Translations under genes and position numbers: made by a program
Virus record (IMG/VR): IMGVR_UViG_2711768166_000003
Reading direction: 5' to 3' (one strand)
From: a virus
Taxonomy: Duplodnaviria; Heunggongvirae; Uroviricota; Caudoviricetes
DNA length: 37,277 nucleotides
Part shown: piece by piece, positions 1-17,248 of the stretch
Layout: each line of letters opens with the position of its first letter
Position numbering within the stretch: position 1 is the first letter of the stretch
Notes under the pieces: model-generated
Told to the model about the DNA's origin: nothing
What the model saw: only the letters and a program-made list of their open reading frames with translations
Databases searched by the model: none

Positions 1-341
1 GGCGTCACACCCGAAGAGACAATTACTTCTGGAACCCCATTGAGATGCTGGTAAAAGCGTTGGAACCACAATTCCAGATTCATACCATTGGCGAGAATCA
101 GTTGTGCCCCCTGCGCACGTTTAATATCGCCAGGGGTAGGCTGATACTCATGAATTTCTGCACCAGGCTTGGTTATGGATGAGACTTCTGCAGCATCTCC
201 CGCCACGTTTTTGGCCATATCCGCGATGATGGTAAATGTTGTAATGACCTTAAATTTTTCAGTTGCACTTGCCTGAAATGCGATCGAGCAGGTGAGTGCG
301 AGGCCCCCCAAGAGCATGGTTACTTTTTTTATTGAGCGCAT
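1..341 (-). CDS. sitA: Mn/Fe ABC transporter periplasmic substrate-binding protein SitA, N-terminal part (gene continues beyond window start)
   Basis: Reverse-strand translation from ATG at 339-341 reads MRSIKKVTMLLGGLALTCSIAFQASATEKFKVITTFTIIADMAKNVAGDAAEVSSITKPGAEIHEYQPTPGDIKRAQGAQLILANGMNLELWFQRFYQHLNGVPEVIVSSGVTP; signal peptide then conserved SitA/MntC-type N-terminus. Not in the ORF track because it runs off the window edge. Confidence 0.8.
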   Translation of the reverse strand, partial: MRSIKKVTMLLGGLALTCSIAFQASATEKFKVITTFTIIADMAKNVAGDAAEVSSITKPGAEIHEYQPTPGDIKRAQGAQLILANGMNLELWFQRFYQHLNGVPEVIVSSGVT

Positions 342-373
342 AATTTAGTACCTATAGTGAGCAAAATTAGAAC

Positions 374-395
374 AAACATAGCAACGGCTATGTTT
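374..395. promoter_or_regulatory. MntR-box-like perfect inverted repeat in the sitA upstream region
   Basis: AAACATAGC-aacg-GCTATGTTT, a 9-bp perfect inverted repeat with 4-bp spacer; matches the recalled MntR operator consensus found upstream of mntH/sitA. Confidence 0.6.
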
Positions 396-417
396 TATAG
401 CATAACCTATACAGAAT

Positions 418-436
418 GAAAATGATTATCATTAAC
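418..436. promoter_or_regulatory. Fur-box-like site in the sitA upstream region
   Basis: GAAAATGATTATCATTAAC matches the 19-bp Fur consensus GATAATGATAATCATTATC at 16 of 19 positions; palindromic core AATGAT-T-ATCATT. Confidence 0.5.
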
Positions 437-534
437 ATCTTTGAGGCCCAAAACAGGGATTAGTTTGTTTCCTGCTGGATGAAAGGACTCTTGGGATAGC
501 ACATGCCGCACGAAGAGCAGCATTACATGATGTT

Positions 535-774
535 TTGTCGAATGAGCTACGAATCCTGATAGAAATACGAAACAAGCTAGCACATGGACAATGGATCTAT
601 CCCTTCAATAATGAAGGAAATACTGTTGACCCTGATAAATATAAATTAATCAATAAAGAAAACTTGCAGTCACTCCAATTCAAATATTCATTAGCACAGC
701 ATTTAGTTGACGCTGTACATGATTTGGTTGTAAGTCCTACGACATTCGAACGAGATTTCGAAAGCCATTTTTAA
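535..774 (+). pseudogene. Short ORF with HEPN-like R-x4-H motif, possible remnant of an Abi-type HEPN protein
   Basis: 79-aa ORF in AT-rich DNA; contains EIRNKLAHGQW (R-x4-H plus flanking residues typical of HEPN active sites). Too short for a full HEPN protein; no clear RBS. Confidence 0.3.
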
Positions 775-1256
775 AAATTATATCAAGTACGAACAAACTT
801 AGTGACAAAAGACTACGAAAAATATAAAACAATTTTAGTATTAAGTAGAGAGAAATTTCGTTCTGCTAGGACGCAGCAATAGGTTCATGAGATTCTCTGA
901 TACTTGTTACCTTAGTAAGCCTTAAATTTTTAAAAATTCTTTTACGTCCACTCCTCGCTCATAACAGGCATTAACTACATTTATCTTCATTGGCTATGCA
1001 AGTCGTAATAAAAGGTGGGACAAAACTGAGACACATAAGCTCTCACAAAGGTCTGCAAGGCCTCACATGTATTGAGATGTTAATAAAATGTAGACTTGTA
1101 ATTTTGATATAAATGGTAGATAAAACCTTTCCCCAAAATAAAAACGAACGTCAATGAAATCAAATGGTTGAATAAAGTTGATTTTGGCTAATAAAAAAAC
1201 AATAAAATAATTTTTATTATTAAATATCAATGACTTAAACTTAATGTTTTTATATA

Positions 1257-1421
1257 CTGCTGCGCCATATGGGCTGGACTGAAGCTGCAGACCTGATTGT
1301 TAAAGGTATGGAAGGCGCAATCAATGCCAAGACCGTAACCTATGACTTCGAACGTCTGATGGAAGGCGCTAAACTGCTGAAATGTTCAGAGTTTGGTGAT
1401 GCGATCATCAAGAACATGTAA
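1257..1421 (+). pseudogene. icd: Isocitrate dehydrogenase 3'-terminal fragment (icdC-like), prophage attachment junction
   Basis: In-frame translation [54 protein letters not shown] matches the Icd C-terminus with a few substitutions; similarity starts abruptly at about 1257 with unrelated AT-rich DNA upstream, so no intact icd precedes it. Confidence 0.85.
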
Positions 1422-1444
1422 TTACTACATATGTTAAATATTGT

Positions 1445-1476
1445 AACGGGCGTATAACACGTCCGTTATTTTTTGT
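1445..1476 (+). terminator. Rho-independent terminator following the icd 3' fragment
   Basis: Stem AACGGGCGT / ACGTCCGTT (one mismatch) followed by ATTTTTTGTT. Confidence 0.55.
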
Positions 1477-1490
1477 TAGCCTGCTAACGG

Positions 1491-1523
1491 TTATCAAAAT
1501 TTTATCAAAACAAGTTATCAAAA
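1491..1523. repeat. Three direct copies of TTATCAAAA next to the att junction (candidate integrase arm-type or accessory-protein sites)
   Basis: TTATCAAAA at 1491-1499, 1502-1510 and 1515-1523. Confidence 0.5.
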
Positions 1524-1763
1524 CCCTTGGTAGTTGGCGGTGAGAGGGGGGGGGTTAAGCGCGTTAGTTTTTCATTACGAATTTCTCTGCTTTTCATGAT
1601 TAATGTTGGTGGATGCTTGCTAATATTTAGGCCTGTGTTGTGCCAGAAGCAGAAGTTGCCAGCATTAAATTGATGGGGTAATAAAATATGGTTTGTTGTT
1701 TGAAATTCTAATGGATTCAATTAATTAGGTTTTAATGTTTGACTAGCTCACAAGTATAATTAT

Positions 1764-3347
1764 TTGTTATTCAAAGGAACAAGACAATTGAACACTTTCA
1801 TATTCAGAAATAATGATGAAATCGGGAAGTTAGAGGCAGAATCAGACAATTACTTAGACTCATGTTTTTTAGAGACAAACATATTCAAAGGTATTATGAA
1901 CTTTGATCCATCTGAGAAAAATCCAGATTTTACGAAAAGAATCATCGTTGGAAGAACTGGTAGCGGAAAGTCAGCGATTTTAAGGAAGATTATCGACGAA
2001 GAAAGCATAAAGTTTTCTGATAAGATTGAAGCAGAAAACACTATTTTTGAACATGTTAAAAACAATGTCTTTATTTCATCCCTAAATGATAGTGGAATTG
2101 ACTTGAGAGTTTTTTATAAGTCTTTATGGTTACATGCGCTACTAATAAAAGTCATTCCAGCCTTACATCGGTCAACTTATCAAAGCTTTTTTAATAAAAT
2201 TCAAGACTTAATTGGTGGGAAAAAGAAGTCATATAATCCAGAGTTGGCAAATGAATATATCGAACAATTTAAGGACGTATTTTTTAATGACAAGGCTTTA
2301 GTGGAAATAAGCAACAAAATGCAGAGTGAATTATCTTCTAAGATAGGTATAAAAGGTATAGATCTTGGAGGTAAACTTGGTCGCGAAGACACTCAGAAAG
2401 TGCAGTCTGAAACATCCAGTTATGTAAGCAGAGAGTTAATCAGAAAACAAAAGGAATTAATAAAAATATTAAATGAAGAGTTTTCTGAAGTTGGACAGTT
2501 TAGGATAGTTATAAGCATTGATGATCTTGATCGTTCTTGGCTGAGCTCTAGCGATATAAGATATGATTTTATAAATGCACTATTAGAAGCATTTAGGGAG
2601 TTACTTGACGTCAAGTCAGTTAAAATATTAATTTCGATTAGAACTGATATACTAATGGGTATTTACAATAAAACATTAAGGCAAGATGAGAAGGACCAGT
2701 CTCTTATTTATCCTGTATCTTGGAATAAATCAGAGATCCGAGAAATAATTGACATGCGTATTAATCACTTAATTAAAAATAAATATCAAAGCTCTCGCAC
2801 TATTACAATGAAAGATATTTTCAATTTTGAAATTGATAACGTATATGCAGATGATTATATTTTAGACAGAACAATGTTAAGACCTAGAGATGCAATAAGT
2901 TTTGTAAATTATTGCTTAAAGGAGTGTGATGGGCACGTAAGTATTAATCAAGATATAGTTTTAATGGCAGAAGAGAAGTTTTTTTCTTCTAGGAAAAGAG
3001 CATTGGTGTCGGAATGGGGAACTATTTACAAAAATATTTCAGGTTACATAGACGCCTTATCTTTGTTGGAAAAACATGAATTTTCATTAGAATCAATTGG
3101 AGACGATAATAAAAATGACATTCTAACTTATATTCTTGATAGAGTTCCATCAGATATCGAAGATGATTTACACTCCAAAATAGTAATGAACTTTGATGAA
3201 TTAATAAAAGTATGGTTTATTGTTGGAATTATAGGGATAAAGAGGACTGAAACCTTAATAATATACTCTTCATATGATAAACCCGATCTTGATATCACTG
3301 ATATCAAACGCAACTTCGTCATTCATCCTTTGTTTAATAGAAGATGA
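1764..3347 (+). CDS. AT-rich cargo P-loop NTPase, KAP-like (Walker A GRTGSGKS, Walker B VISIDDLDR); candidate defence ATPase
   Basis: 527-aa ORF; Walker A near residue 63 and hhhhDDLDR Walker B near residue 250 (long A-to-B spacing as in KAP NTPases), further ISIRTD and LRPRDA motifs. Sits between att and int. Start uncertain: track start is TTG at 1764; first in-frame ATG is at 1896; a TATAAT hexamer lies at 1755-1760. Confidence 0.7.
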   Translation: MLFKGTRQLNTFIFRNNDEIGKLEAESDNYLDSCFLETNIFKGIMNFDPSEKNPDFTKRIIVGRTGSGKSAILRKIIDEESIKFSDKIEAENTIFEHVKNNVFISSLNDSGIDLRVFYKSLWLHALLIKVIPALHRSTYQSFFNKIQDLIGGKKKSYNPELANEYIEQFKDVFFNDKALVEISNKMQSELSSKIGIKGIDLGGKLGREDTQKVQSETSSYVSRELIRKQKELIKILNEEFSEVGQFRIVISIDDLDRSWLSSSDIRYDFINALLEAFRELLDVKSVKILISIRTDILMGIYNKTLRQDEKDQSLIYPVSWNKSEIREIIDMRINHLIKNKYQSSRTITMKDIFNFEIDNVYADDYILDRTMLRPRDAISFVNYCLKECDGHVSINQDIVLMAEEKFFSSRKRALVSEWGTIYKNISGYIDALSLLEKHEFSLESIGDDNKNDILTYILDRVPSDIEDDLHSKIVMNFDELIKVWFIVGIIGIKRTETLIIYSSYDKPDLDITDIKRNFVIHPLFNRR

Positions 3348-3477
3348 TATCTAAGGTATGATCTTAGTATAAACCTAGTTAAAATTATTAAGGCACATCC
3401 CTCGCTTAAACCAAATTGTTTGACTCTTTTTCATGAGTGGTGAGAAATTCAAGGTAGCGTTGAAAATATTAGATTTT

Positions 3478-4605
3478 TTACCACGCTACCTTGCTCCATC
3501 CTTTGCCTCGATCGTCATGATAACGATCGGTTTGTTGTTGCGTTTTATGGCCAAGTAGTTTTTGTGTGTCTACCCCCTGTTCTTTGTACAGACGTTCAGA
3601 TAAAGACCTTTGTTCATGGAATGTTGCTGGTGAGCCATTACCCCAGTCAATTTCTGCCAAATCTCTCGCTCTACTAAAATTCGTCGTCAATGTATTGGAT
3701 TTAACCTGCGCGCCACGTTCAGCCTGTGAAGTGGTACGAAAAAAATGCACAAGGTATGGGCTGACTGCATAGTCACGGCAGCGGGCGACTACATCGCGTA
3801 AACTCCAGTTAATTGCATTGAGGCGAAGGGAAAGCGGGATGGCGATTTTGCTCCCGGTTTTTTCTTGGATGACGTGAAGATGATCATCCCAAATATCGCT
3901 AAATTTCATTTTGGATATATCTCCCAAACGCTGCCCAGTGACCAAAGCTAGGAGCATGGCATTTCCCATGTAACGATGACTGGCGTCTGCTATATCGAAT
4001 ATTTTTTGCCATTCTTCCAGGCTGAGGCGTTGACGGGTAATTTTTCTTTTGGGTTGCTTCGTCGCAAGAGCAGGGTTATACCCTGGCGGAACTTCGCCAT
4101 AATGCTGTGCTTCCTTAAACACATCGATCAATACAGACCTAACGACTTGGGCCATTCTAGGCTGTCCAGCTGCAATATACTCATCAAGCAATTGTGCTAT
4201 ATCTCTAACATCAACGGATGAGATCAACTTCATTCCTGCTCGTTCTCTGAGCAAGGATACTGGTTTAGCTTTTTGCTTATAGGTGTTGAGTCTTATATCA
4301 CCACTTTTGAGCCTGTCATCCTGGATCGCTTGATAGCGATCTAACCAGGTTGACGTTGTGATCGCTTTTCCTTTGCTGGTTGCGATCCTATCACTGATAG
4401 CTAGAATCTGCCGGGTTCTTTGCTCAGCCAGACGAGTGTTAGCTTCAGTGGCAATAGCAATAGCTTCAGCTTCATTTGTGCCCAACGAATGAAATTTCCC
4501 GGTCACTGGATGCTTATATCGCCAATAGACTTTATTTACTTTTCTACTATAAAGCGGATACAAGTTAGGTACTGAAACATTATTTTTACGTGGTCTGGCT
4601 GCCAT
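3478..4605 (-). CDS. int: Phage integrase, tyrosine recombinase
   Basis: 375 aa; conserved catalytic elements TGQRLGD (Arg), HEQRSLSERLY (H-x-x-R) and C-terminal TDRYHD (Tyr); adjacent to att and excisionase. Confidence 0.95.
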   Translation of the reverse strand: MAARPRKNNVSVPNLYPLYSRKVNKVYWRYKHPVTGKFHSLGTNEAEAIAIATEANTRLAEQRTRQILAISDRIATSKGKAITTSTWLDRYQAIQDDRLKSGDIRLNTYKQKAKPVSLLRERAGMKLISSVDVRDIAQLLDEYIAAGQPRMAQVVRSVLIDVFKEAQHYGEVPPGYNPALATKQPKRKITRQRLSLEEWQKIFDIADASHRYMGNAMLLALVTGQRLGDISKMKFSDIWDDHLHVIQEKTGSKIAIPLSLRLNAINWSLRDVVARCRDYAVSPYLVHFFRTTSQAERGAQVKSNTLTTNFSRARDLAEIDWGNGSPATFHEQRSLSERLYKEQGVDTQKLLGHKTQQQTDRYHDDRGKGWSKVAW

Positions 4606-4846
4606 TGCTTAAAATCCTTTGCAGAATAATAGAATCACTTTTCTTGATTACTGGAGTAACTAATTCCCCAACTAACTCTGCGTCCTCACGTACTCGCCAG
4701 AGTCGACCTTGTTTCATTGCTGGTGGACAAAATAAATTCTGCTTAGCATAACGACGCAATGTGGACACACTTGGAGGATTACTCCTAAATTTTTCCGCAG
4801 CCCATTCCTCAAGTGTCAGCATTTGAAGCATTTTTGATAACCTCAT
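4586..4846 (-). CDS. xis: Excisionase (Xis)
   Basis: Small protein immediately upstream of and overlapping int; MLTLEEWAAEK...PSVSTLRRYAK...GRLWRVRED is typical of phage excisionase-type DNA-binding proteins. True start may be the internal Met at 4831, which has a GAGG RBS. Confidence 0.8.
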   Translation of the reverse strand: MRLSKMLQMLTLEEWAAEKFRSNPPSVSTLRRYAKQNLFCPPAMKQGRLWRVREDAELVGELVTPVIKKSDSIILQRILSNGSQTT

Positions 4847-4886
4847 TTCTTTTGCTACAAAACTATTTCACTAGTTAATTTCGCTG

Positions 4887-5423
4887 TCAGGATTGCTTAT
4901 GTATCTTATGCAGCTCTTTAAAACGTTCCATAAATATCTCGTAGGCATGGCCAGGAGCCAGAGGAACAACTTCGAACATCTCTGTTGCCGGGATACCTTC
5001 CAATACTGGCCAGAAAGAGCCATCATCAAGCCCGAGATCGCGGCGTTCGGTTGCCAGCATGATGAGATCGGCATATTTCACGGGCGTGCTCATAGCCTGA
5101 GGTAACCCGTATTTCTCACGGATTACGGCGTCTATTTTTTCTTCCATCCGTTTATAGTCAGGAAGAAGGCGTTTCAGTGCTGCGGGGATGTCCTGGCAAT
5201 ACGCTTCTGTTGCATCATGCATTAATGCTTCAAAAGCAAATTCCTGCGGTACCAGCATGCTGCAAAGCACCGCATGTTGGGCGACGCTATAGAAGTGTGA
5301 AAGGTGTCCTGCAAAGCGGCAGATATTTGAAAGGGAAACCGCGATATCGTTAATAACGATGTCGTCTTTATTTATCTTGTCATAATAAAAATGCTTCCCA
5401 GAAAAAGTTTTAATAAATGACAT
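4887..5423 (-). CDS. HD-domain phosphohydrolase (YfdR-like 5'-deoxynucleotidase)
   Basis: H...HD metal-binding signature (SVAQHAVL ... LMHDATEAY); start set at the Met preceded by GGAGAA RBS (MSFIKTFSGKH...), 178 aa. Confidence 0.8.
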   Translation of the reverse strand: MSFIKTFSGKHFYYDKINKDDIVINDIAVSLSNICRFAGHLSHFYSVAQHAVLCSMLVPQEFAFEALMHDATEAYCQDIPAALKRLLPDYKRMEEKIDAVIREKYGLPQAMSTPVKYADLIMLATERRDLGLDDGSFWPVLEGIPATEMFEVVPLAPGHAYEIFMERFKELHKIHKQS

Positions 5424-5551
5424 TTTGTTCTCCACGTTATATGCGCTGCACCGCGCTGAATTTTGGTTAAAGAAAACCCTCGCCATCAGGCGATTATTGA
5501 GTCAATTACGTTTCCATAAATGCCCCCGCAGGGGCATTTGCAGTAATGAAA

Positions 5552-6376
5552 TCAGGCGGTGAAAGTACCAATAAAGGTTTCTACTTTGCTGTCTTTGAAT
5601 TTATCAACAAGCAGATCACGAAATTCGTTAGCCATTTCCTCCTGCACTGCTTCCAGCTGAATAATGCGTAGTACCAGTACAGGACGATCGCCAGTGATAA
5701 TGCTGAGGCGTAATTTAAACGGACGTTCTTTCAGGCCTTCAAACGGAACGCATTTAAATTCAAATGCCACTGGCATAATGTCTTTGGTCTTCGCTTCGAC
5801 AGACTCCATCAGGGAGCGTTTGCCGCTGAAGTCATTGTCTTCAAAATCAGCAGTCTGGTTCGCTTCAATTGTGATTTTACGGATCGCCGCAGCCGCTTTG
5901 GTTGCCTGAATGGCGTCACCATTAGCATCAAAGCCCACAAGGTAGTCGGCCCAGTCTTCAATCCATTCTGCCAGTGACTTCTGGGAGTTACGCTCGCCGT
6001 TAACAGACAACAGTGCAGAGAACGGTGCTGTCTTTTTCAGTTTGAGAGTGGCGGTATTATCTGCGTGACCTGGTTCATCAATAGTACCCAGGTTAAGAAC
6101 ACTGACGGCACGCATATTATCGGCATCGATAAAGCAGCGGGTGCCTTCATCTGCAAGATCTTTAGAATAACGGGTAAAGTCATCGATGCAGGCAGTGGAA
6201 AGCGCGCCACGGAAACGGAAGCGATTTAAATTAAATTTTTCCAGATCATGAATGCGGAAATTTTCAGGTAATGCCACTGCGTCGGCACCAATCTTACTGA
6301 TAATTTCATTAACACCCTGAGCAGAAATAAGGGCATGGATTTGATTAATTGCGGTTGCGTCTAAGTTCTGAGACAT
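5552..6376 (-). CDS. Conserved prophage protein (YfdQ-like, DUF2303-type)
   Basis: 274-aa ORF co-oriented with the flanking early genes; size and order (120 aa, 274 aa, 178 aa) match the yfdP-yfdQ-yfdR prophage gene trio as I recall it. Confidence 0.7.
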
Positions 6377-6441
6377 AATAAGTCCTCACTATATAAAGAT
6401 ATTCAGTGATGAGGTAAATAATCAGTTAATTAAGAACGATA

Positions 6442-6804
6442 TTAATGACCTGCTGCGCGGAGTTTTCCGTCAGGCTCACCGGCAAGAGTCAGTAATTGTC
6501 CCTGGTCTTCCTGCAGAATAGTCAGGCGCCCACCGCGATTGACATACATCGGCGTTTCGGTGGTGTCTTCTTCGGAAATTTTCCCGCGGTTAGTCGGGCG
6601 AACATATGAGAGTTTGTGTTTGATTTTCACACGGTTCTCATCAAATGGTTCGATTTCCAGGTTGAGTGAGACCTTACCTTTGGTTTTCGTGTTCATCACA
6701 CCGGAAGCGACTTCACTGAGAACTGCGCCGATTTTGGTTTCAAATACGCCGCCGTCCAGCTCCCCGATAAATGCCTGCACATCAGTACCGCGTTCGCTAG
6801 CCAT
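6442..6804 (-). CDS. Conserved prophage protein (YfdP-like)
   Basis: Start chosen at the internal Met preceded by GAGGAG RBS (MASERGTDVQAF...), 120 aa; the longer track ORF to 7032 is rejected. Confidence 0.6.
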   Translation of the reverse strand: MASERGTDVQAFIGELDGGVFETKIGAVLSEVASGVMNTKTKGKVSLNLEIEPFDENRVKIKHKLSYVRPTNRGKISEEDTTETPMYVNRGGRLTILQEDQGQLLTLAGEPDGKLRAAGH

Positions 6805-7083
6805 TTTGCTGCTCCTCATCATATCGACCCTGCAAGGTCGGTTGGTTTCTCCACAAAACAGAGAAGAACACCTGCGGTGGCAGCCGCCCGGATGGATTGG
6901 GTTATGAGCCCGTCGTCCGGTGATGCTCTTCTCTGTTTTGTAAAAAGAGCGGTACCAGCCGGAAGCAAGGGTACAAACTGGTACCGCCAGGACTACACAC
7001 AGCAATGAAACTATTGCCTGTCTTTTCACCACTTCAGGCTCGGTGGTATGCTGGAGTTCTCACACAGCCAGCAAGGAAACCTA

Positions 7084-7425
7084 ATGAACCAGTTTTATGT
7101 TCACGTTCGTCTGTTTGAAGCAACAGCCGAACAGACCAAAAAATTTGAAGAATTAATGCTTAACTTTCTGTACCAGAAAACAATCAAAGAGTCTGACGAT
7201 AGCTGCTGCAGACTGATTCCAGAGGGATATATCCTCAAAAGCACAATGAACTGCCAACAAATCCTTGATCAAACTTTTTCCATTGCTAACAGTGCTGGTG
7301 TTGACGCAAATATATTTGTCTGCAAATTTGAACAAAGCGCATGCTTACTTCCGTCTGCTTCCTTAGTTGGCAACGATTTTGTTCATCACGATCTTACGCC
7401 TAAGCCCATCAAGCTCGATTCTTAA
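7084..7425 (+). CDS. Hypothetical prophage protein (e14 YmfI-like by size and position)
   Basis: Start at the Met preceded by AAGGAA RBS (MNQFYVHVRLFEA...), 113 aa; its 3' end overlaps the convergent ORF 7363..7671. Confidence 0.5.
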   Translation: MNQFYVHVRLFEATAEQTKKFEELMLNFLYQKTIKESDDSCCRLIPEGYILKSTMNCQQILDQTFSIANSAGVDANIFVCKFEQSACLLPSASLVGNDFVHHDLTPKPIKLDS

Positions 7426-7671
7426 TGCCTTAACCATTGTGTCGTGATAAACACGGCTCACCCTCTCTCCATTGCATGGCAGTGGGGTGATCGTGTTAGC
7501 CATGAAATTCATGAACTTGGTTCGATCAGGGTCTTGCGCCTCGCAAGTCTTTAATGCCTGTTTTGCTAACAAAATACGGGCCTCAGTGCCTGCATTTGGC
7601 TCTATCTGCTGCAAACGTTTAGCGTCTTCCAGCAACAATGCGATCACATGCTTCAAATCCTGCTCATTCAT
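7363..7671 (-). CDS. Hypothetical prophage protein, first gene of the leftward early operon (e14 YmfJ-like by size and position)
   Basis: 102 aa; GGAGAG RBS 7 nt upstream of ATG; lies directly downstream of the OL/pL-like operator pair. Confidence 0.55.
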   Translation of the reverse strand: MNEQDLKHVIALLLEDAKRLQQIEPNAGTEARILLAKQALKTCEAQDPDRTKFMNFMANTITPLPCNGERVSRVYHDTMVKALRIELDGLRRKIVMNKIVAN

Positions 7672-7858
7672 CTATTCTCTCCACTGAAATCATCCGCTAA
7701 CGAATCATCCTGGACTTCATATGCCCCAGGCTGTTACTTCGTGGGCGTCCTGCCTGTTCGTTTTTGACATTTACTGACCGCTTACGACACATGCACCGTT
7801 TTGCAACCAGATTTTGTTGTAATCCTGTAGTTGGTCTGGAACAAAAGATAAAATTAAA

Positions 7859-7894
7859 TTGCGAGATATGCAAGTAATATTGCGATATATGCAA
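7859..7894. promoter_or_regulatory. OL-like operator pair (two 15-bp TTGCG-N5-TGCAA sites) with candidate leftward promoter
   Basis: TTGCGAGATATGCAA (7859-7873) and TTGCGATATATGCAA (7880-7894), centres 21 bp apart; on the minus strand TTGCAT and TATCTT hexamers with 17-bp spacing overlap the sites. Confidence 0.5.
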
Positions 7895-7905
7895 AATGAT
7901 GGGTA

Positions 7906-7928
7906 ATAAAAAGCCACCTTTCGGTGGC
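7906..7928 (-). terminator. Rho-independent terminator downstream of the repressor gene
   Basis: Minus strand GCCACC-GAAA-GGTGGC followed by TTTTT, between the CI stop (7949) and the OL sites. Confidence 0.6.
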
Positions 7929-7948
7929 CGATGGATGGGATATTGAGG

Positions 7949-8641
7949 TTAATTATGTCTCTTAAGGGTTTGCGACTGACTGATTAAGACCTTTCCAAAG
8001 ACCATGAATCGGTGTTCGTTTTCGCTAGTAATTCCCCATTCACGGTAAATCTGGTTATCAGAAATCACCAGCAGTTTGTCAGGAATCATTTGAAGTCTTT
8101 TAACGTATATTTTGTCATCAAAACCAAAGACATATATACCATCACCATCAAACTGATTGATGCTGACATCAACGAAGATGAGATCTCCTGGCTCAATGGT
8201 TGGACACATACTGTCCCCACGAACGTTGATAACTTTGATGTGATTGGCTGGTCGTCCGCCGAACATTGATACAGCATTATCAGTTCTGTATTCGATGGCA
8301 TGAATCACATCAATGACATCACCGCCCTGGATAAGGCCATTTCCCGCACTGGCACTGATATCCAGCATTTCAATACGGAACACATCCTTCACCTGCGCAA
8401 CATCCTCATTATTACTGTTTTTATATACAGTATTACTTTTGAGGGCAGAGGTAAAGAGATCAGCAATATCAACACCTAAGCTCTTGGCAATATTACTCAG
8501 TGTTTGTTCGGTAAATTGTTTTTGCTTACCCGTTTCTAAGCGCGAGATGTTCGCCGCATCTACTCCTATTGCTTCAGCGAGATCGGCGATTTTCATGTTC
8601 TTCGCTTGGCGAAGTTGTCTGACTCGGTTTCCTATGTTCAT
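7949..8641 (-). CDS. CI-type prophage repressor (N-terminal HTH, C-terminal S24 LexA-like peptidase domain)
   Basis: 230 aa; N-terminal XRE-type HTH (KIADLAEAIGVDAANISRLETGK), C-terminal S24 motifs (GDSMCPTI ... KRL); divergent from cro. Confidence 0.9.
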   Translation of the reverse strand: MNIGNRVRQLRQAKNMKIADLAEAIGVDAANISRLETGKQKQFTEQTLSNIAKSLGVDIADLFTSALKSNTVYKNSNNEDVAQVKDVFRIEMLDISASAGNGLIQGGDVIDVIHAIEYRTDNAVSMFGGRPANHIKVINVRGDSMCPTIEPGDLIFVDVSINQFDGDGIYVFGFDDKIYVKRLQMIPDKLLVISDNQIYREWGITSENEHRFMVFGKVLISQSQTLKRHN

Positions 8642-8654
8642 GCGTTTATTACAT

Positions 8655-8725
8655 TTCTTTATTGCGTGATAAGCAAATCAACTTGCGCAAAATAATTGCG
8701 TGAAATAACATGCATAACGCGCAAT
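8655..8725. promoter_or_regulatory. OR-like operator/promoter region between cI and cro
   Basis: TTGCGTGATAAGCAA (8662-8676), which fits the TTGCG-N5-(A/T)GCAA pattern of the OL sites, plus further TTGCG / CGCAA half-sites (TTGCGCAA 8683-8690, TTGCGTG 8696-8702, CGCGCAA 8717-8723). Confidence 0.5.
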
Positions 8726-8738
8726 ATTTGGAGGGTAT

Positions 8739-8999
8739 ATGCAATCACCATTACGAAATGTGCGTAAGGCGCATGGTTTCACTTTGCAGCATGTTGCTGC
8801 GGGTGTTCAAGTCAATCCAGCGACGTTGAGTCGTATTGAGAGGCTGGAGCAGATTCCATCTATCGAGCTTGCAGAACGTTTAGCCAATTTTTTTAAGGGT
8901 GAAGTCAGCGAAATGCAGATTCTTTATCCGGCACGTTTTCAATCTAGCCAAAATCAGAATGGGTTTAAACCACAGGAACAGGAGGTGAACCGTGGGTAA
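8739..8999 (+). CDS. Cro-like HTH transcriptional regulator
   Basis: 86 aa, XRE-type HTH (HGFTLQHVAAGVQVNPATLSRIERLEQ); GGAGGG RBS; divergent from the repressor. Confidence 0.8.
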   Translation: MQSPLRNVRKAHGFTLQHVAAGVQVNPATLSRIERLEQIPSIELAERLANFFKGEVSEMQILYPARFQSSQNQNGFKPQEQEVNRG

Positions 9000-9549
9000 G
9001 CATCACTGGAAAATAGAAAAACAGCCTGAGTGGTACGTGAAAGCTGTCAGAAAAACTATCGCGGCGTTGCCGGGTGGTTACGCTGAAGCGGCTGACTGGC
9101 TCGATGTAACAGAAAACGCTTTATTCAACCGCCTTCGTGCAGATGGCGATCAGATTTTCCCGCTGGGATGGGCAATGGTTTTACAGCGTGCTGGTGGCAC
9201 TCACTTCATTGCTGATGCTGTGGCGCAGTCTGCAAATGGCGTCTTTGTGTCTCTTCCTGACGTCGAGGATGTGGACAACGCCGATATTAACCAGCGTCTG
9301 CTGGAAGTCATTGAACAGATCGGCAGTTATTCAAAACAGATTCGTTCAGCAATCGAAGACGGTGTAGTGGAACCGCATGAGAAGACAGCAATTAACGACG
9401 AGCTGTATCTCTCAATTTCGAAGCTGCAGGAGCATGCAGCACTTGTCTACAAAATTTTTTGCATTTCAGAAAGTAATGACGCCCGCGAGTGTGCAGCTCC
9501 GGGCGTCGTGGCGTCGATTGCTTCTGGTTGTGGAGAAACTAACGCATGA
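8992..9549 (+). CDS. Phage regulatory protein (CII-like / e14 YmfL-like)
   Basis: 185 aa; GTG start preceded by AGGAGG; position right after cro. Confidence 0.65.
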
Positions 9550-9884
9550 ACAGTTTAACAACACACTACCGTCGCTCGCAACTGATTGCGCTTCCGGTAC
9601 CGGGTGGAAAAGCGAAGGTGGAATATTGCTATGCAGTGAATGTACCAGGTGACAGGGAAATTGTAACCCACAGCTTTGCAGAGTGGGCTGTGGGTGATTT
9701 CAACCGGCAGAAGGAGACAGTCCTTTGCGACAAGTTAACCGCTGGTTCAAAGATCACTACGGAGTGCCCGTCAGAGTCATTCGTTGGGAGCCGGAAACAC
9801 AACGGGTTATCTACCTCCGCGAAGGTTATGAGCATGAATGCTTCAGTCCGCTCGAACAGTTTCGTCGTAAATTCAGGGAAATAG
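9546..9884 (+). CDS. Hypothetical phage protein (e14 YmfM-like)
   Basis: 112 aa; ATGA start/stop overlap with the upstream gene. Confidence 0.6.
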
Positions 9885-9893
9885 AGGTCGGTC

Positions 9894-10835
9894 ATGAGCA
9901 CTAAATTAACCGGCTATGTATGGGATGGTTGCGCTGCATCAGGCATGAAGTTATCCAGCGTGGCAATTATGGCCCGCCTGGCTGATTTCAGTAATGACGA
10001 AGGTGTGTGCTGGCCATCAATTAAAACCATTGCCCGTCAGATTGGCGCGGGGATGAGTACCGTCAGAACGGCTATCGCACGGCTGGAAGCAGAAGGCTGG
10101 TTAACGCGTAAGGCGCGTCGCCAGGGTAACCGCAATGCGTCGAATGTTTATCAGCTTAACGTTGCGAAGCTTCAGGCAGCGGCATTTTCTCAACTGTCAG
10201 ATTCTGACCCGTCAAAATCTGACGCATCAAAATCTGACCCGTCAAAATTTGATGCGTCGAAATCTGGCAAAAAAGCGGGTTTTCACCCGTCAGAATCTGG
10301 CGGGGATCCGTCAGTAAAATCAAAACATGATCCGTCAGATAAAAAAACTTCTCGTCCGGACGCTTCGCAACCGGACACGCAGACGGCTGAACAGGATTTT
10401 TTAACTCGCCATCCTGATGCGGTTGTATTCAGCCCTAAAAAGCGCCAGTGGGGGACGCAGGATGATTTGACCTGCGCACAGTGGCTCTGGAAAAAAATCA
10501 TCGCCCTGTACGAGCAGGCTGCCGAATGTGACGGCGAGGTGGTTCGTCCCAAAGAACCGAACTGGACAGCCTGGGCAAACGAAATTCGCCTGATGTGTGT
10601 GCAGGATGGTCGTACTCACAAACAAATCTGCGAGATGTACAGCCGCGTCAGCCGCGATCCGTTCTGGTGCCGTAACGTGCTCAGCCCGTCGAAGCTGCGG
10701 GAAAAATGGGATGAGCTTTCCCTGCGCTTATCGCCGTCCGTCAGCACGTACACAGAAAAACGCGAAGACCCGTACTTCAAAGCCAGTTACGACAATGTGG
10801 ACTACAGCCAGATCCCGGCAGGATTCAGGGGGTGA
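9894..10835 (+). CDS. Replication initiation protein (O-like, N-terminal winged-helix DNA-binding domain)
   Basis: 313 aa; N-terminal HTH (WPSIKTIARQIGAGMSTVRTAIARLEAEGWL); internal Ser/Asp/Lys repeat linker encoded by tandem DNA repeats. Confidence 0.8.
   Translation: MSTKLTGYVWDGCAASGMKLSSVAIMARLADFSNDEGVCWPSIKTIARQIGAGMSTVRTAIARLEAEGWLTRKARRQGNRNASNVYQLNVAKLQAAAFSQLSDSDPSKSDASKSDPSKFDASKSGKKAGFHPSESGGDPSVKSKHDPSDKKTSRPDASQPDTQTAEQDFLTRHPDAVVFSPKKRQWGTQDDLTCAQWLWKKIIALYEQAAECDGEVVRPKEPNWTAWANEIRLMCVQDGRTHKQICEMYSRVSRDPFWCRNVLSPSKLREKWDELSLRLSPSVSTYTEKREDPYFKASYDNVDYSQIPAGFRG
10195..10350. repeat. Candidate replication origin: iteron array plus A-rich tract inside the O-like gene
   Basis: Five tandem ~15-bp units (TGTCAGATTCTGAC, CCGTCAAAATCTGAC, GCATCAAAATCTGAC, CCGTCAAAATTTGAT, GCGTCGAAATCTGGC), then further CCGTCAG copies and an A-rich stretch (GATAAAAAAAC). 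Confidence 0.55.
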
Positions 10836-10837
10836 GC

Positions 10838-11326
10838 ATGAGTCTTTTGAATGACGTTCAGAAATTCATTGAAGCCCATCCGGGCTGTACTTCCGGAGAC
10901 ATTGCGGATGCTTTTGCAGGTTACTCACGGCAGCGCGTTCTGCAGTCAGCAAGCAAGTTACGTCAGAGTGGGCGTGTGGCTCACCGTTGTGAAGGAGATA
11001 CACGCAGACATTTCCCGCGCCTGACTGAGAGAGCGCAGGAGCCGGAACCACAACCAGTTCGTGAAACCAGACCTGTGCGCAATTTCTATGTCGGCACTAA
11101 CGATCCCCGGGTGATTTTATGCCTGACCCGCCAGGCTGAAGAACTGGAGTCAAGGGGCTTATACCGTCGTGCTGCAACCGTGTGGATGGCGGCATTCCGT
11201 GAAAGCCACTCCCAGCCAGAACGAAACAATTTTCTGGCACGTCGTGAGCGGTGCTTACGGAAAAGCAGCAAGCGCGCTGCATCGGGTGAAGAGTGGTATC
11301 TGTCAGGGAATTACGTGGGGGCTTAA
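10838..11326 (+). CDS. Hypothetical phage protein (Arg-rich, possible regulator)
   Basis: ATG at 10838 preceded by a GGGGGTGA RBS-like stretch; ends with TAATG overlap to the methylase gene. Confidence 0.55.
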   Translation: MSLLNDVQKFIEAHPGCTSGDIADAFAGYSRQRVLQSASKLRQSGRVAHRCEGDTRRHFPRLTERAQEPEPQPVRETRPVRNFYVGTNDPRVILCLTRQAEELESRGLYRRAATVWMAAFRESHSQPERNNFLARRERCLRKSSKRAASGEEWYLSGNYVGA

Positions 11327-11979
11327 TGAGTAATAAATATTGCCGGGCGCTGGTGGAACTGCGGAACAAACCAGCCCATGAACTGAAGGAAGTGGGCGAT
11401 CAGTGGCGCACGCCGGATAACATTTTCTGGGGAATTAACACCCTGTTTGGCCCGTTTGTCCTGGATCTGTTTACTGACGGTGATAACGCCAAATGTACCG
11501 CGTATTACACGGCGGAAGACAACGCGCTGGCGCATGACTGGTCAGAACGTCTTGCGGAGCTTAAAGGTGCTGCCTTTGGTAATCCCCCATACAGTCGCGC
11601 CAGTCAGCATGAGGGGCAATACATCACCGGCATGCGTTACATCATGAAACATGCCGGTGCCATGCGTGATAAAGGCGGGCGCTATGTTTTCCTGATCAAA
11701 GCTGCCACCAGCGAAGTGTGGTGGCCGGAAGATGCAGACCATATTGCTTTTATTCGCGGGCGTATTGGTTTTGAACTGCCTGCCTGGTTTATCCCGAAAG
11801 ATGAGAAGCAGGTGCCGACAGGCGCTTTCTTCGCTGGTGCTATTGCTGTTTTCGACAAGACCTGGAAGGGACCGGCAATCAGCTACATCGGGCGCGATGA
11901 ACTTGAGGCATGTGGTGAGGCCTTTCTGGCGCAGGTTCGCCAGCAGGCGGAAAAACTGGTCAGGGAGATGGCGGCATGA
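11326..11979 (+). CDS. Phage DNA N6-adenine methyltransferase (Dam-type orphan methylase)
   Basis: Catalytic motif IV FGNPPYS; upstream DQWRTPDNIF and LDLFTDG motifs typical of the phage Dam family; start at the MSNKY Met. Confidence 0.85.
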   Translation: MSNKYCRALVELRNKPAHELKEVGDQWRTPDNIFWGINTLFGPFVLDLFTDGDNAKCTAYYTAEDNALAHDWSERLAELKGAAFGNPPYSRASQHEGQYITGMRYIMKHAGAMRDKGGRYVFLIKAATSEVWWPEDADHIAFIRGRIGFELPAWFIPKDEKQVPTGAFFAGAIAVFDKTWKGPAISYIGRDELEACGEAFLAQVRQQAEKLVREMAA

Positions 11980-12302
11980 CGACGTTAACTCAATGCCAGC
12001 AGCAGGTGCTGGATATGCTGATTTCTTACCAGAAAGAACGTGGCTTCCCGCCAACCAATCAGGAGGTGGCAACCATGCTGGGATACCGTTCAGTGAATGC
12101 AGCGGTGGAGCATCTTCGCGCACTGGAGAAAAAAGGCGTCATCACGATAAAGCGTGGCGTGGCCCGGGGGATCACGCTTCATACCGCAGTGAAGGACGAC
12201 GACAGCGAAGCGGTCGGTATCATCCGCGCACTGCTTGCCGGTGAGGAGAACGCTAGGTTGCGTGCAGCCCACTGGTTACATGAGAGGGGCCTGAAAGTAT
12301 GA
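11976..12302 (+). CDS. LexA-type DNA-binding domain protein
   Basis: 108 aa; ERGFPPTNQEVATMLGYRSVNAAVEHLRALEKKGVITIKRGVARGI resembles the LexA N-terminal winged helix; no peptidase domain. Confidence 0.7.
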   Translation: MTTLTQCQQQVLDMLISYQKERGFPPTNQEVATMLGYRSVNAAVEHLRALEKKGVITIKRGVARGITLHTAVKDDDSEAVGIIRALLAGEENARLRAAHWLHERGLKV

Positions 12303-14502: not shown

Positions 14503-14519
14503 TTTTGTGGAGAAAGTTG

Positions 14520-14876
14520 ATGCGTGATATGTATGAAGTAATGGATCGTTGGGGAGCTTGGGCTGCTTCAGACAATAGCGGAGTGGACTGGCAGCCGATA
14601 GCGGCTGGTTTCAAGGGACTTTTACCTCATGGCAAAAAGTCACGGATTCAGTGTGATGATGACGAAGGCATCATGATAGACAGTTGTGTGGCTCGGTTGA
14701 GAAGGTATAAACCAGAGGAATATGAGCTCATCATCGCCCACTTTGTTATCGGTATCTCATTACGCACTATTGCGAAGAAGAGAAAATGCTCTGATGGCAC
14801 AATTAGGAAGGAACTGCAAACTGCAATGGGGTTTGTTGATGGCTGTTTAGCAATGTTAGCTTATAGTATGGCATAA
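14520..14876 (+). CDS. Late-gene antiterminator Q (QuuD-type)
   Basis: MRDMYEVMDRWGAWAA ... IAAGFKGL ... SRIQCDDDEG ... CSDGTIRKELQTAMGFVDG parallels the recalled QuuD-family sequence; start at ATG 14520 after a GGAGAAAG RBS. Confidence 0.85.
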   Translation: MRDMYEVMDRWGAWAASDNSGVDWQPIAAGFKGLLPHGKKSRIQCDDDEGIMIDSCVARLRRYKPEEYELIIAHFVIGISLRTIAKKRKCSDGTIRKELQTAMGFVDGCLAMLAYSMA

Positions 14877-16070
14877 AAAATAAAATAGATTTACTGCCGA
14901 TTTTTCAAAAAAGACTGGGAACTGTTTATATCCAACGTAAATAAGGCCTCCATAAAACATGGCTGATGCGAGATATTTAACAGTTCTCATCCTTTTTTTA
15001 GCTTTATCAATCAAACCTGTAATGCTACTCTTAATACTATCTGCATTATCTTTGATTTCTTTATTTTCTTCAAACTTTAAATACTTATCGAAAGCGGACT
15101 CCACTCGAGAACGTAAGTTGTCGAATGTTTCATTGAATATCTCAATAGAAATGTAATTGACTTTTTTTATCATCCAAAGTCCTGCGATAATCAATATTGC
15201 TTCGGTTGTTTCATTAGCCTTCACTAAGCCACCAGCTGCTATTAATGCACCGGGAATAGTCAATGCTTTTGTCTGATTAGATGATATGAATTCGTTAATT
15301 TTACTCGTGAACTCAAGATTTTTCTCATCGAGTTCGTTAAGAATTTTATTTACAGAAAACCTCTTTGTGTAAATCTCATATAGTTCATCATATTTTTTCC
15401 TGACGAGTTCAGTAGAGTTAAGCAAGTCAAAGAAATTGAACGTACCATTTGCTTTAAATACTTCGTTTATGGCTGAGCGTATAACGAGCTTGCGCTCGCT
15501 TTTGTGTAAATCATTGATTTTTATTGTGTCGAGAAGCTCCTTTACAATTTCATATTTAAGAGACGAGTTCGATAAGCGATTAATCTCGCTATATTGTAAA
15601 AAATGCGTGAGTTCGACTGTATAACTTTTGTCTTCATTGGTGAAAAATAAGACAGAGCAGTCACTGTTATGATGATCAGAAATTAATGAAAGGATATCTT
15701 TCCACATAAAGAAAATATGGATTTTTTCGATGCTTTCATTCTTAGAAGTAGGGAGTATTAACGGCGTTCCGATGATATAATTTTTCGGAAGAGCGTTTTG
15801 GGTGTTTACTCTAGACCAAAAAGACTCAACATTCTCATAAATTATAGCATCATCCCAAGATGAAGCTTGGCGATCTAGCCAAATTTCATTATTTTCGATG
15901 CAGGTTGTTGCCTTTTTATAACCTATAGATTGTAACAGTCTAATTATTTCAGAACTATTTACAATAACAATGCTTTCTTCAAGACTTATGACAGTGTAGT
16001 AGCCCTCAACTCTGCTTGAGGCTCCGTTAATAATCTGCGCTAATCTTGATAAGTCATCAGCAATTGTCAT
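14856..16070 (-). CDS. AT-rich cargo gene B: protein with predicted C-terminal transmembrane helices (candidate effector)
   Basis: 404 aa; hydrophobic segments ALTIPGALIAAGGLV, AILIIAGLWMI and YLASAMFYGGLIYVGY in the last third; start ATG 2 nt after the stop of gene A; 3' end overlaps the Q gene convergently by 21 bp. Confidence 0.75.
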   Translation of the reverse strand: MTIADDLSRLAQIINGASSRVEGYYTVISLEESIVIVNSSEIIRLLQSIGYKKATTCIENNEIWLDRQASSWDDAIIYENVESFWSRVNTQNALPKNYIIGTPLILPTSKNESIEKIHIFFMWKDILSLISDHHNSDCSVLFFTNEDKSYTVELTHFLQYSEINRLSNSSLKYEIVKELLDTIKINDLHKSERKLVIRSAINEVFKANGTFNFFDLLNSTELVRKKYDELYEIYTKRFSVNKILNELDEKNLEFTSKINEFISSNQTKALTIPGALIAAGGLVKANETTEAILIIAGLWMIKKVNYISIEIFNETFDNLRSRVESAFDKYLKFEENKEIKDNADSIKSSITGLIDKAKKRMRTVKYLASAMFYGGLIYVGYKQFPVFFEKSAVNLFYFLCHTIS

Positions 16071-16072
16071 TA

Positions 16073-17248
16073 TTAGCTGTCTCTATATCTTTTGAGTTCA
16101 TCATAATTTGCCTGACTCAATTTTATCACAATTTCGCATTTGTTGTCAGTGAGAATTACAGGCTTATTTGACTTTTCGTCTCCAATAGCTCCACGCATTA
16201 TTTTCAACTTAAAATTATTGTCGTTATCTGCCACTTCAATTGTAAGCGCGCTTTCAGCTGCTTTAGGAGTTGGTTCAAATTGAGGGTCAATCTGGAAACC
16301 ATTAAGATTAACAAAATCGACAAACGTTCCCTTACATTTGTGTGAATCAGTCAGGCATGAGTCAATTATTTTTGAAATATCCTCTATCTTAACGGACTTA
16401 TTTCCGTGTTTATCTTTTGATTTTTTTTCCAGTAAGGATTTAACTTCATTGTCAATAGTATCACGCAGTACACGACCGAGTGAGTTTTTACTAGCAAAAA
16501 TATCTATAGCACTGAATAATTGCTGAATGCTTCTTTTATTGTCCGAATCATGTCGGCAACCTAATGAGTCTTTGAAAAAATCGCTTTTAGATTTACCTTG
16601 CAAGAAATGTACATATGAGTCACCCTTGTTTTCTGGATAACTGGCTTCGAATAAAGTTAAATCGAACATCGCAGCCTGCCGTAAGGCATCGGTATTAATT
16701 GGATTTAATCTTGTTGGGGTCAACTTATCCGAATCAAAGTCATAGGCGCTTTGTTTATCAACCATTACGATTAGAAGTTTCCCCAAATCCTCTGGTTCGG
16801 TAGACTTATAGTGGATGAAAACAACGCTCCCCCCCTGAAGTTGGGCAACTCTCGATTCGTTATTAGCATTATGTTTAAGCTTCTCTATTATAGCTCTAGA
16901 TAAATCAATGAATTCATTATTTTTATTAATGTATTTTTTTAGGATCGTAGGAATGGATGAAGGGTTGTGATCTGAGTCTAGGAAGTTATGAAATTTGTTT
17001 TTTCGGCTAAATTTTTTCTCAATTCTGGTTATGAATTCAGATGTGACTTCATTTTTTAGATCCCAAACTTCACCTAATCGATAATCAAATGCTCTTGAAT
17101 CATTTTTTTCAAGATTTGCTGTTACAGCACCAATAGGAAAGTACGATTGTTTGCCCAGCACTACAACATGAGGCGTGGCACCGCATTTATCGCAAGCTAC
17201 AGTTGGGTCGTCAAGAACATTGCCACATTCTAAACAAGTTATATCCAT
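16073..17248 (-). CDS. AT-rich cargo gene A: N-terminal zinc ribbon plus NA37/YejK-like nucleoid-associated domain
   Basis: 391 aa; N-terminal CLECG-x12-CDKCG; central region aligns by eye to YejK (GGSVVFIHY vs GGFVLFCHY; ...DLT...FL.GK...). Family assignment is from memory, not a search. Confidence 0.7.
   Translation of the reverse strand: MDITCLECGNVLDDPTVACDKCGATPHVVVLGKQSYFPIGAVTANLEKNDSRAFDYRLGEVWDLKNEVTSEFITRIEKKFSRKNKFHNFLDSDHNPSSIPTILKKYINKNNEFIDLSRAIIEKLKHNANNESRVAQLQGGSVVFIHYKSTEPEDLGKLLIVMVDKQSAYDFDSDKLTPTRLNPINTDALRQAAMFDLTLFEASYPENKGDSYVHFLQGKSKSDFFKDSLGCRHDSDNKRSIQQLFSAIDIFASKNSLGRVLRDTIDNEVKSLLEKKSKDKHGNKSVKIEDISKIIDSCLTDSHKCKGTFVDFVNLNGFQIDPQFEPTPKAAESALTIEVADNDNNFKLKIMRGAIGDEKSNKPVILTDNKCEIVIKLSQANYDELKRYRDS

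Follow-up and report, generated by a model that had tools for sequence, protein, structure and literature searches.

A probable decayed remnant of a HEPN-like gene beside the att junction of a sit-carrying lambda-like prophage

We propose that positions 475-967 of the window (the whole stretch of 37,277 nucleotides of viral DNA analysed here) are very probably the non-functional remnant of a stand-alone 243-codon HEPN-like gene that was carried as phage cargo, cut at a CTGG and left to decay. The homology of this stretch to full-length genes, its truncation, its nonsense codon, its junction, its distribution among genomes and the secondary deletions of its sister alleles are observed directly in the DNA. 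As an ordinary unannotated pseudogene the relic itself matters little. It points to an intact family that is compact, unusually well conserved, stand-alone and marked by an invariant R-N-x3-H, a family that has no Pfam, NCBIfam or PADLOC entry and is a candidate new single-gene anti-phage RNase.

The remnant and its extent

The window opens with the 5′ part of sitA, encoding an iron/manganese ABC transporter substrate-binding protein (1-341, minus strand, with the start codon ending at 341, as annotated by RefSeq on identical DNA of strains KC-Dl-1 and MS1657), followed by the sitA upstream, or promoter, region (342-478). Megablast, the junction sequences and blastn of the MS1657 allele against the plasmid and GF47 copies show this region to be common to chromosomal and ColV-type plasmid sit cassettes, and here it stops at 478. 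On the other side, an icd 3′ fragment (1269-1421, plus strand) marks the att junction and is followed by the icd terminator (1443-1469), both placed from the ORF list, RefSeq and a terminator scan in which the icd terminator was the only one found between 300 and 1800. The original prediction described the DNA in between as an AT-rich spacer lacking other ORFs, and this is what we see across 342-1268: GC lies between 0.28 and 0.40 in 200-nt windows, no second ORF exceeds 58 aa, and RefSeq places no annotation in the sitA-icd interval of strains with the same DNA.

The one larger ORF of this interval (535-774, plus strand, 79 aa) begins with TTG, ends at a premature TAA and encodes, as predicted, the peptide EIRNKLAHGQW at 562-594, with RNKLAH at 568-585. 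By itself the R-x4-H motif is uninformative in an ORF of 79 aa, as the open segments of all six frames of the whole window (28,834 residues) contain it 78 times, or about 0.2 times expected per 79 aa. The reading frame, which is open from 445, runs on past the TAA at 772-774 to a TAG at 880-882, and the conceptual product of 445-882 (145 aa) gives 445 protein matches, led by one with E = 3e-75 and 92% identity. The matched proteins are nearly all 241-250 aa long (about 243), and the alignment covers their last 135 residues and ends where they end. At the DNA level, 475-967 aligns without gaps over 493 nt, at 96% identity, to an intact gene with its 85-nt 3′ flank (L008 8325-8817), the encoded protein of which is 100% identical in Serratia rubidaea NCTC12971.

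Positions 475-882 (plus strand) are codons 109-243 of a 243-codon gene, with the native TAG at 880-882, and the first 108 codons are gone, as read from the ungapped DNA alignment, the protein matches and the codon table. The following 85 nt (883-967) are the 3′ flank of the parent gene, with 4 mismatches in the alignment to the intact locus, and have been co-inherited with the remnant. The 79-aa ORF represents residues 129-207 of the parent protein, that is the middle of the remnant, which without any change of frame begins 20 codons before the TTG and runs for 36 codons past the in-frame TAA; comparison with intact genes places this TAA (772-774) at an AAA codon, K208. The ORF had rightly been judged too short to be an intact gene, but positions 535-774 understate the feature, which occupies 475-882 in one frame and continues with the 3′ flank to 967. 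A translated search for the rest of the gene, proposed in order to see whether adjacent frames carry it, recovers the 3′ part in the same frame, but the 5′ 108 codons, sought in all other frames of 342-1268, were not found and have been deleted.

The similarity thus reaches far beyond the short motif, the match to which is not fortuitous. Because the homology spans 135 residues of full-length 243-aa proteins and the 96% DNA identity includes noncoding flank, ORF 535-774 is not a chance ORF, and a spurious frame in an AT-rich spacer that happens to contain R-x4-H has a negligible probability, even though the motif is common in open frames of the window and both the 79-aa ORF and the 145-aa conceptual translation give nothing in Pfam, PADLOC and NCBIfam except a sub-threshold ArenaCapSnatch match.

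The left junction and the decay of the remnant

At its left junction the window reads TTTCCTGCTGG joined directly to ATGAAAGG. The sit-upstream sequence of other strains reads CTGCTGG followed by CGAC at this point, and the other sit loci (the MS1657 chromosome, a ColV-type plasmid and the GF47 chromosome) continue after the CTGG with CGAC(G/A) and further on TATTGAGGA, whereas the intact gene reads CCTCTGG followed by ATGAAAGG. The 5′ homology of the remnant therefore ends exactly at CTGG (475-478, plus strand), a sequence common to the sit-upstream region and the intact gene, and the sitA upstream stretch that other cassettes share over 185-197 bp is only 137 bp long in the window. As both partners are cut at the shared CTGG, the junction carries the signature of illegitimate recombination or deletion. 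On the right side, homology to the intact locus stops at 967 and is followed by 9 bases of filler (968-976, from the junction comparison), and from about 977 the sequence is that of the prophage-end region. This AT-rich sequence beside the att core (977-1268), which is 91-97% identical to E. coli strains with another insert, is probably the attP arm.

A single illegitimate recombination or deletion at the 4-bp CTGG would account for the loss of the first 108 codons (5′ 324 nt) of the gene and, in the same event, for the loss of the distal 50-60 bp or so of the sit upstream region together with whatever lay between. The start codon of the gene would have been lost in this way, along with predicted helices 1-2 and the conserved acidic E59. 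Both the origin of the truncation in a single event and the order of the events are our reconstruction from the junction sequences; the presumed ancestral arrangement, with sit beside an intact copy, was sought and not found, and the 5′ half of the gene is present in 2 of 5,426 E. coli genomes, in both of them elsewhere, in a different prophage beside a Septu-like pair. The neighbouring icd 3′ pseudogene fragment resembles the HEPN-like remnant in being a truncated, unexpressed leftover of recombination at a prophage end, but it is a by-product of site-specific integration, whereas the remnant would have been made by illegitimate recombination between sequences that share 4 bp.

The relic is present in about 298 of the 5,426 complete E. 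coli genomes (about 5%) at 97-100% identity, with at least 80% of it matched in 219, and may therefore be used as a lineage marker of the sit-phage family. Its length among the 298 genomes is 489, 389, 380, 301 or 99 nt. KE50-type alleles have the same left junction and lack the 160 bp that a 13-nt direct repeat, ATTTTTAAAAATT, bounds on both sides; a repeat search and the KE50-type alignment place its two copies at 767-779 and 926-938 of the window (plus strand). In these alleles a 1-nt difference makes a TTG start, and gene callers give a 120-aa chimeric ORF (P0009). Because the left junction is the same and the deletions differ, we read this variation as one primary truncation followed by varied secondary lesions across lineages. 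Following the truncation, the remnant would have drifted, acquiring the K208 nonsense codon in the window lineage and in phage Lambda_4C10, and in other lineages losing the 160 bp between the 13-nt repeats or shrinking to shorter remnants; it may persist only because the sit promoter on one side of it and the attP arm on the other are both under selection. The features that define a pseudogene are all found here, namely truncation relative to full-length homologues, a disrupted frame (codons 1-108 missing, TAA at codon 208) and further independent lesions in sister alleles (the 160-bp deletion and the shorter remnants).

The substitutions point in the same direction. Compared with the nearest intact copy the relic has 10 nonsynonymous and 4 synonymous changes in addition to the nonsense codon (omega about 0.68), against omega values of 0.12-0.37 for the same codons among intact copies. 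Fisher tests of the relic changes give p = 0.03 against the Serratia-Klebsiella pair and p = 0.18 against the Serratia-Rahnella pair, and the contrast, which rests on 14 substitutions, is only suggestive of relaxed selection.

Retention of the truncated gene for a function, be it as a decoy or anti-defence protein against dimeric HEPN nucleases, as an antitoxin-like peptide or as a regulatory RNA, would fit the preservation of the motif helix and everything downstream of it, the presence of the fragment in viable phages as well as in a twentieth of complete E. coli genomes at near identity, and the TTG start with its called ORF in KE50-type alleles. We nevertheless regard it as highly improbable. 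The frame in the window is closed by a TGA at 442-444 and the TAA at 772-774, its sole start is the TTG at 535, and no ribosome-binding site is evident before it. Sub-lineages carry different lesions, omega is near 0.7, and RefSeq annotation is absent. Furthermore, promoter-like sites between 300 and 1800 are no commoner than in shuffled sequence, and an Rfam scan of the same stretch never reached the gathering score of a family. The most specific form of this idea, in which the back half is a dominant-negative decoy, pairing as a heterodimer with intact HEPN nucleases of its own family from rival prophages or hosts and so inactivating them, is scarcely credible. We therefore retain the reading of a decaying, non-functional remnant.

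Two occurrences outside the chromosomal and phage context were also noted. The remnant is found on one large E. coli plasmid (NZ_AP026904.1 72688-73092, 237 kb), which suggests the transfer to a plasmid of either the sit-phage end or the sit cassette and flanking DNA. An E. coli-type remnant (residues 109-243, 92% identity) also lies at 398-802 of L042, a 1,450-bp contig binned as a Veillonella parvula MAG, most likely through a binning error.

The cargo slot of the sit phage and the tandem prophages at icd

The first 1.4 kb of the window is the att-proximal end of a sit-carrying prophage, and behind it, in tandem, stands a second prophage, whose integrase is of intE type. The relic had been attributed to a neighbouring or earlier element, and such an origin, in a mobile element resident at icd before the sit phage, could be entertained given two tandem prophages with complex element boundaries and a slot between sit and the att arm that holds a different insert of 1.5 kb in other strains. 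It is very unlikely, since this remnant, as residues 109-243 at 92% identity to the full-length family member P0001, is found between sitA and the integrase in the sequenced phages Lambda_4C10, 4A7, D2, 1W and 3W. Because these phage genomes hold it between sitA and int, on the phage side of attP, the relic belongs to the accessory region of the sit phage itself. Of the earlier claim of a defence gene relic left by another element, the relic stands and its link to defence is drawn from context, but the other element does not hold, as the relic lies inside sit-phage genomes. The intact gene would once have been accessory cargo between sitABCD and attP of an icd-integrating lambda-like temperate phage.

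The alternative allele of the slot is the 1.5-kb insert just mentioned, which encodes a 256-aa hypothetical protein, WP_000567449.1 (L019 3480-4977, strain MS1657; L022 2051-2821). It corresponds to window positions 479-976, so that the HEPN-like remnant is replaced at the same two boundaries; WP_000567449.1 shows no similarity to the HEPN-like gene and no Pfam or PADLOC match. Because two alternative inserts share their boundaries, the stretch from the sit promoter to the att-proximal arm is a replaceable cargo slot. In this way the relic documents the turnover of cargo between the sit cassette and attP in icd-integrating lambdoid phages, through two alternative inserts with the same boundaries, a microhomology junction and later repeat-bounded deletions.

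Both P2/P4 hotspots and the neighbourhood of att sites are known to hold accessory, or 'moron', defence cargo of prophages (Rousset et al. 2022, PMC9122126). Like that cargo, intact copies of the parent gene sit in variable prophage slots (the P2-like S-V interval and a Rac/Qin-like early region). The slot of the remnant is the b-region, from the tail fibre/sit genes to attP, and its cargo is dead here, unlike that of Rousset et al.; the parent family was not found among the systems validated in that study (PMC9122126).

Several further observations concern the prophages of the window. The tandem at icd consists of a sit-carrying lambda-like prophage (Bievrevirus-type, 1-1421) and an intE/e14-like lambdoid prophage from 1422 onward. 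At least 80% of window 1-12000 is matched in only 3 of the 5,426 complete E. coli genomes, one of which, A42, matches only from 1258, without the sit end. A gene for a 527-aa P-loop protein (1764-3347, plus strand), named 'P-loop ATPase, Sll1717 family' by RefSeq, follows the icd fragment and precedes the intE-type integrase gene of the second prophage (3478-4605, minus strand); it matches Pfam KAP_NTPase at 27.9 bits and no PADLOC model. Its place is taken in other E. coli strains by DarT and a macro-domain gene (DarTG) or by a TPR protein, and the site looks like a variable defence-cargo slot beside attL. A run of eight G at 1549-1556, noncoding, just 3′ of the icd terminator and before the P-loop gene, is a possible slippage-prone tract. 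The second prophage also carries an antisense pair (14856-16070 and 16073-17248, both minus strand) between the Q antiterminator gene (14505-14876) and the lysis genes (from 17540), encoding a 404-aa protein without matches and a 391-aa protein that matches the NA37 nucleoid-associated family (84.5 bits). The interval between Q and lysis is a classic moron position.

The parent family and its likely function

At E <= 1e-3, a profile search of 1.84 billion representative proteins returned 492 clusters of the parent family, most of them stand-alone and about 240 aa long. These roughly 490 clusters, counted at 50% identity, are patchily distributed across many bacterial phyla and include the archaeon Methanolobus. 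The family is phrog_12663 ('unknown function'), with P0001 matching at E = 2.2e-72 over residues 5-240 of 243 and three other members at E = 1e-71 to 4e-44. In an alignment of 98 diverse members, with a mean column identity of 24%, N15, W90, R140, N141 and H145 are invariant and E59, A144, G146, Q147 and W148 are at least 90% conserved; the RNKLAH of the window (568-585, plus strand) is R140-N141-x3-H145, the family-invariant R-x4-H. An AlphaFold2 model of P0001 (pLDDT 91.8) is all-alpha and predicts a helix at 116-144 that ends with R140..A144, with H145 opening the loop, and E59 is within predicted helix 42-66, where P0001 reads E59-T-R-L-R63. The E59 region is deleted from the window relic and the RNKLAH motif is retained.

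In catalytic HEPN domains helix 3 ends with R-x4-6-H, whose histidine opens the loop leading to helix 4; the arginine is followed directly by a polar residue (N, D or H), and helix 2 carries an acidic residue, often within E-x3-[KR] (PMC3710099). The family shows the R-x4-6-H with its polar residue, the helix-end position of the motif in the predicted structure and the upstream acidic residue. Nine of the 98 members match Pfam HEPN_RiboL-PSP (best E = 9.3e-7), one matches HEPN_MAE_28990, and UniRef labels member P0075 as a MAE-28990/MAE-18760-like HEPN protein. A Pfam scan of four full-length relatives gives matches at noise level only, and the closest full-length relatives of the relic either do not match the Pfam HEPN profiles or do so at 13.2 bits against a cut-off of 26.8. 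Structural comparison of the P0001 model by Foldseek finds nothing in the PDB at E < 0.1, and in BFVD a MAE_28990-like HEPN phage protein ranks first by probability (0.60), but with E = 0.41 and TM 0.33-0.38 it is not a significant match. The sensitivity of Foldseek may be low for small all-helical folds. PDB sequences, searched with a profile of the parent family, likewise gave no match.

Because the R-N-x3-H is invariant, the predicted structure places the motif as expected and some Pfam matches exist, weak or transitive, we regard the parent family as a probable member of the HEPN superfamily near the RiboL-PSP/MAE_28990 clade. With RiboL-PSP-HEPN (PF18735) and MAE_28990-like (PF18737) domains it shares the helix-end R-N-x3-H, an acidic residue in an earlier helix and an all-alpha structure, and its size is similar to their Pfam profiles of about 200 positions. 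It differs in having two extra C-terminal helices (196-242), of which the relic, keeping only the back half of the protein, retains the coding sequence, and none of the partners of PF18735/PF18737 (ParB nuclease, DNA methylase or L-PSP fusion) is conserved beside it. Indeed no partner gene recurs, as would be expected of a two-gene toxin-antitoxin or operonic defence system: when the 77 nearest upstream and downstream ORFs of 39 diverse loci were compared with one another by BLASTP, no pair reached E <= 1e-5. The neighbours differ even among closely related parent-gene loci, one of which, in Nitrosospira, has a cargo-like setting beside higBA and glmS.

The motif of the relic had been likened to HEPN active sites as they occur in Abi-type proteins. 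The homology, the invariant R-N-x3-H, the predicted motif position and the weak Pfam matches bear out the assignment of the relic to a HEPN-type gene. None of Abi_2/AbiD-F, AbiU2, AbiJ and AbiV (Pfam or PADLOC) matches the fragment or four full-length members at E <= 10, and judged by these profiles the parent family is not an Abi family. The lactococcal-type Abi HEPN proteins (AbiD/AbiF, that is Abi_2, AbiU2, AbiJ and AbiV) are likewise single-gene, stand-alone and associated with mobile elements, and RiboL-PSP-HEPN has been called 'distantly related' to AbiD/AbiF (PMC3710099). The AbiU2-like gene of Rahnella is a neighbour of the parent gene and not its homologue.

The intact protein is most likely a metal-independent RNase of the HEPN superfamily. 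That it acts as a single-gene HEPN-type RNase, activated on phage infection and arresting the cell, is the function we somewhat favour, and we give about even weight to the narrower proposal that phrog_12663 is an undescribed single-gene HEPN abortive-infection system. A search for literature on RiboL-PSP/MAE_28990 HEPN proteins or on a matching single-gene HEPN system found the 2013 HEPN survey alone.

The alternative that the remnant is real and its parent was something other than an anti-phage RNase, such as an addiction toxin, an RNA-processing enzyme or a non-catalytic binding protein, is rather unlikely. No model of validated defence families is matched, as PADLOC-DB v2.0.0 (5,027 models) assigns no family to the fragment, P0001, P0024, P0075 or P0103, and the solved HEPN domains give no structural match. 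At 65-93% identity among Gamma- and Betaproteobacteria and cyanobacteria, the family is more conserved than is typical of defence genes, which evolve fast. In the distant genomes (39 diverse) many immediate neighbours are housekeeping genes, along with a few defence genes, integrases and a transposase, a census too heterogeneous to claim enrichment of defence genes. Against this stand the invariant R-N-x3-H and the conserved upstream glutamate, as in catalytic HEPN domains, and a patchy cross-phylum distribution that includes an archaeon. Intact copies also recur in prophage cargo slots and beside defence genes: in a Rahnella P2-like prophage the gene lies between tail gene S and baseplate gene V, next to the AbiU2-like HEPN gene; in a Rac/Qin-like prophage of E. 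coli 2018-11-1BCC, where the encoded protein is WP_337452296.1, and likewise at three different chromosomal sites of Klebsiella, it is always beside a Septu-like PDC-M01 pair of ATPase and HNH genes; and another copy is beside PIN and AbiJ-NTD4 genes. Taken as gene context, these neighbourhoods are only suggestive of a link to defence, and with the conserved motif they lead us to keep an anti-phage HEPN RNase as the favoured parent.

Where the intact HEPN-like gene accompanies the PDC-M01 pair, the three genes form a module of about 4 kb (L023 8259-12200 in E. coli 2018-11-1BCC; L002-L007 10001-13955 in Klebsiella), in which the pair encodes a 530-aa AAA_15/21 ATPase and a 279-aa HNH protein and is separated from the HEPN-like gene by about 800 bp and a small antisense ORF.
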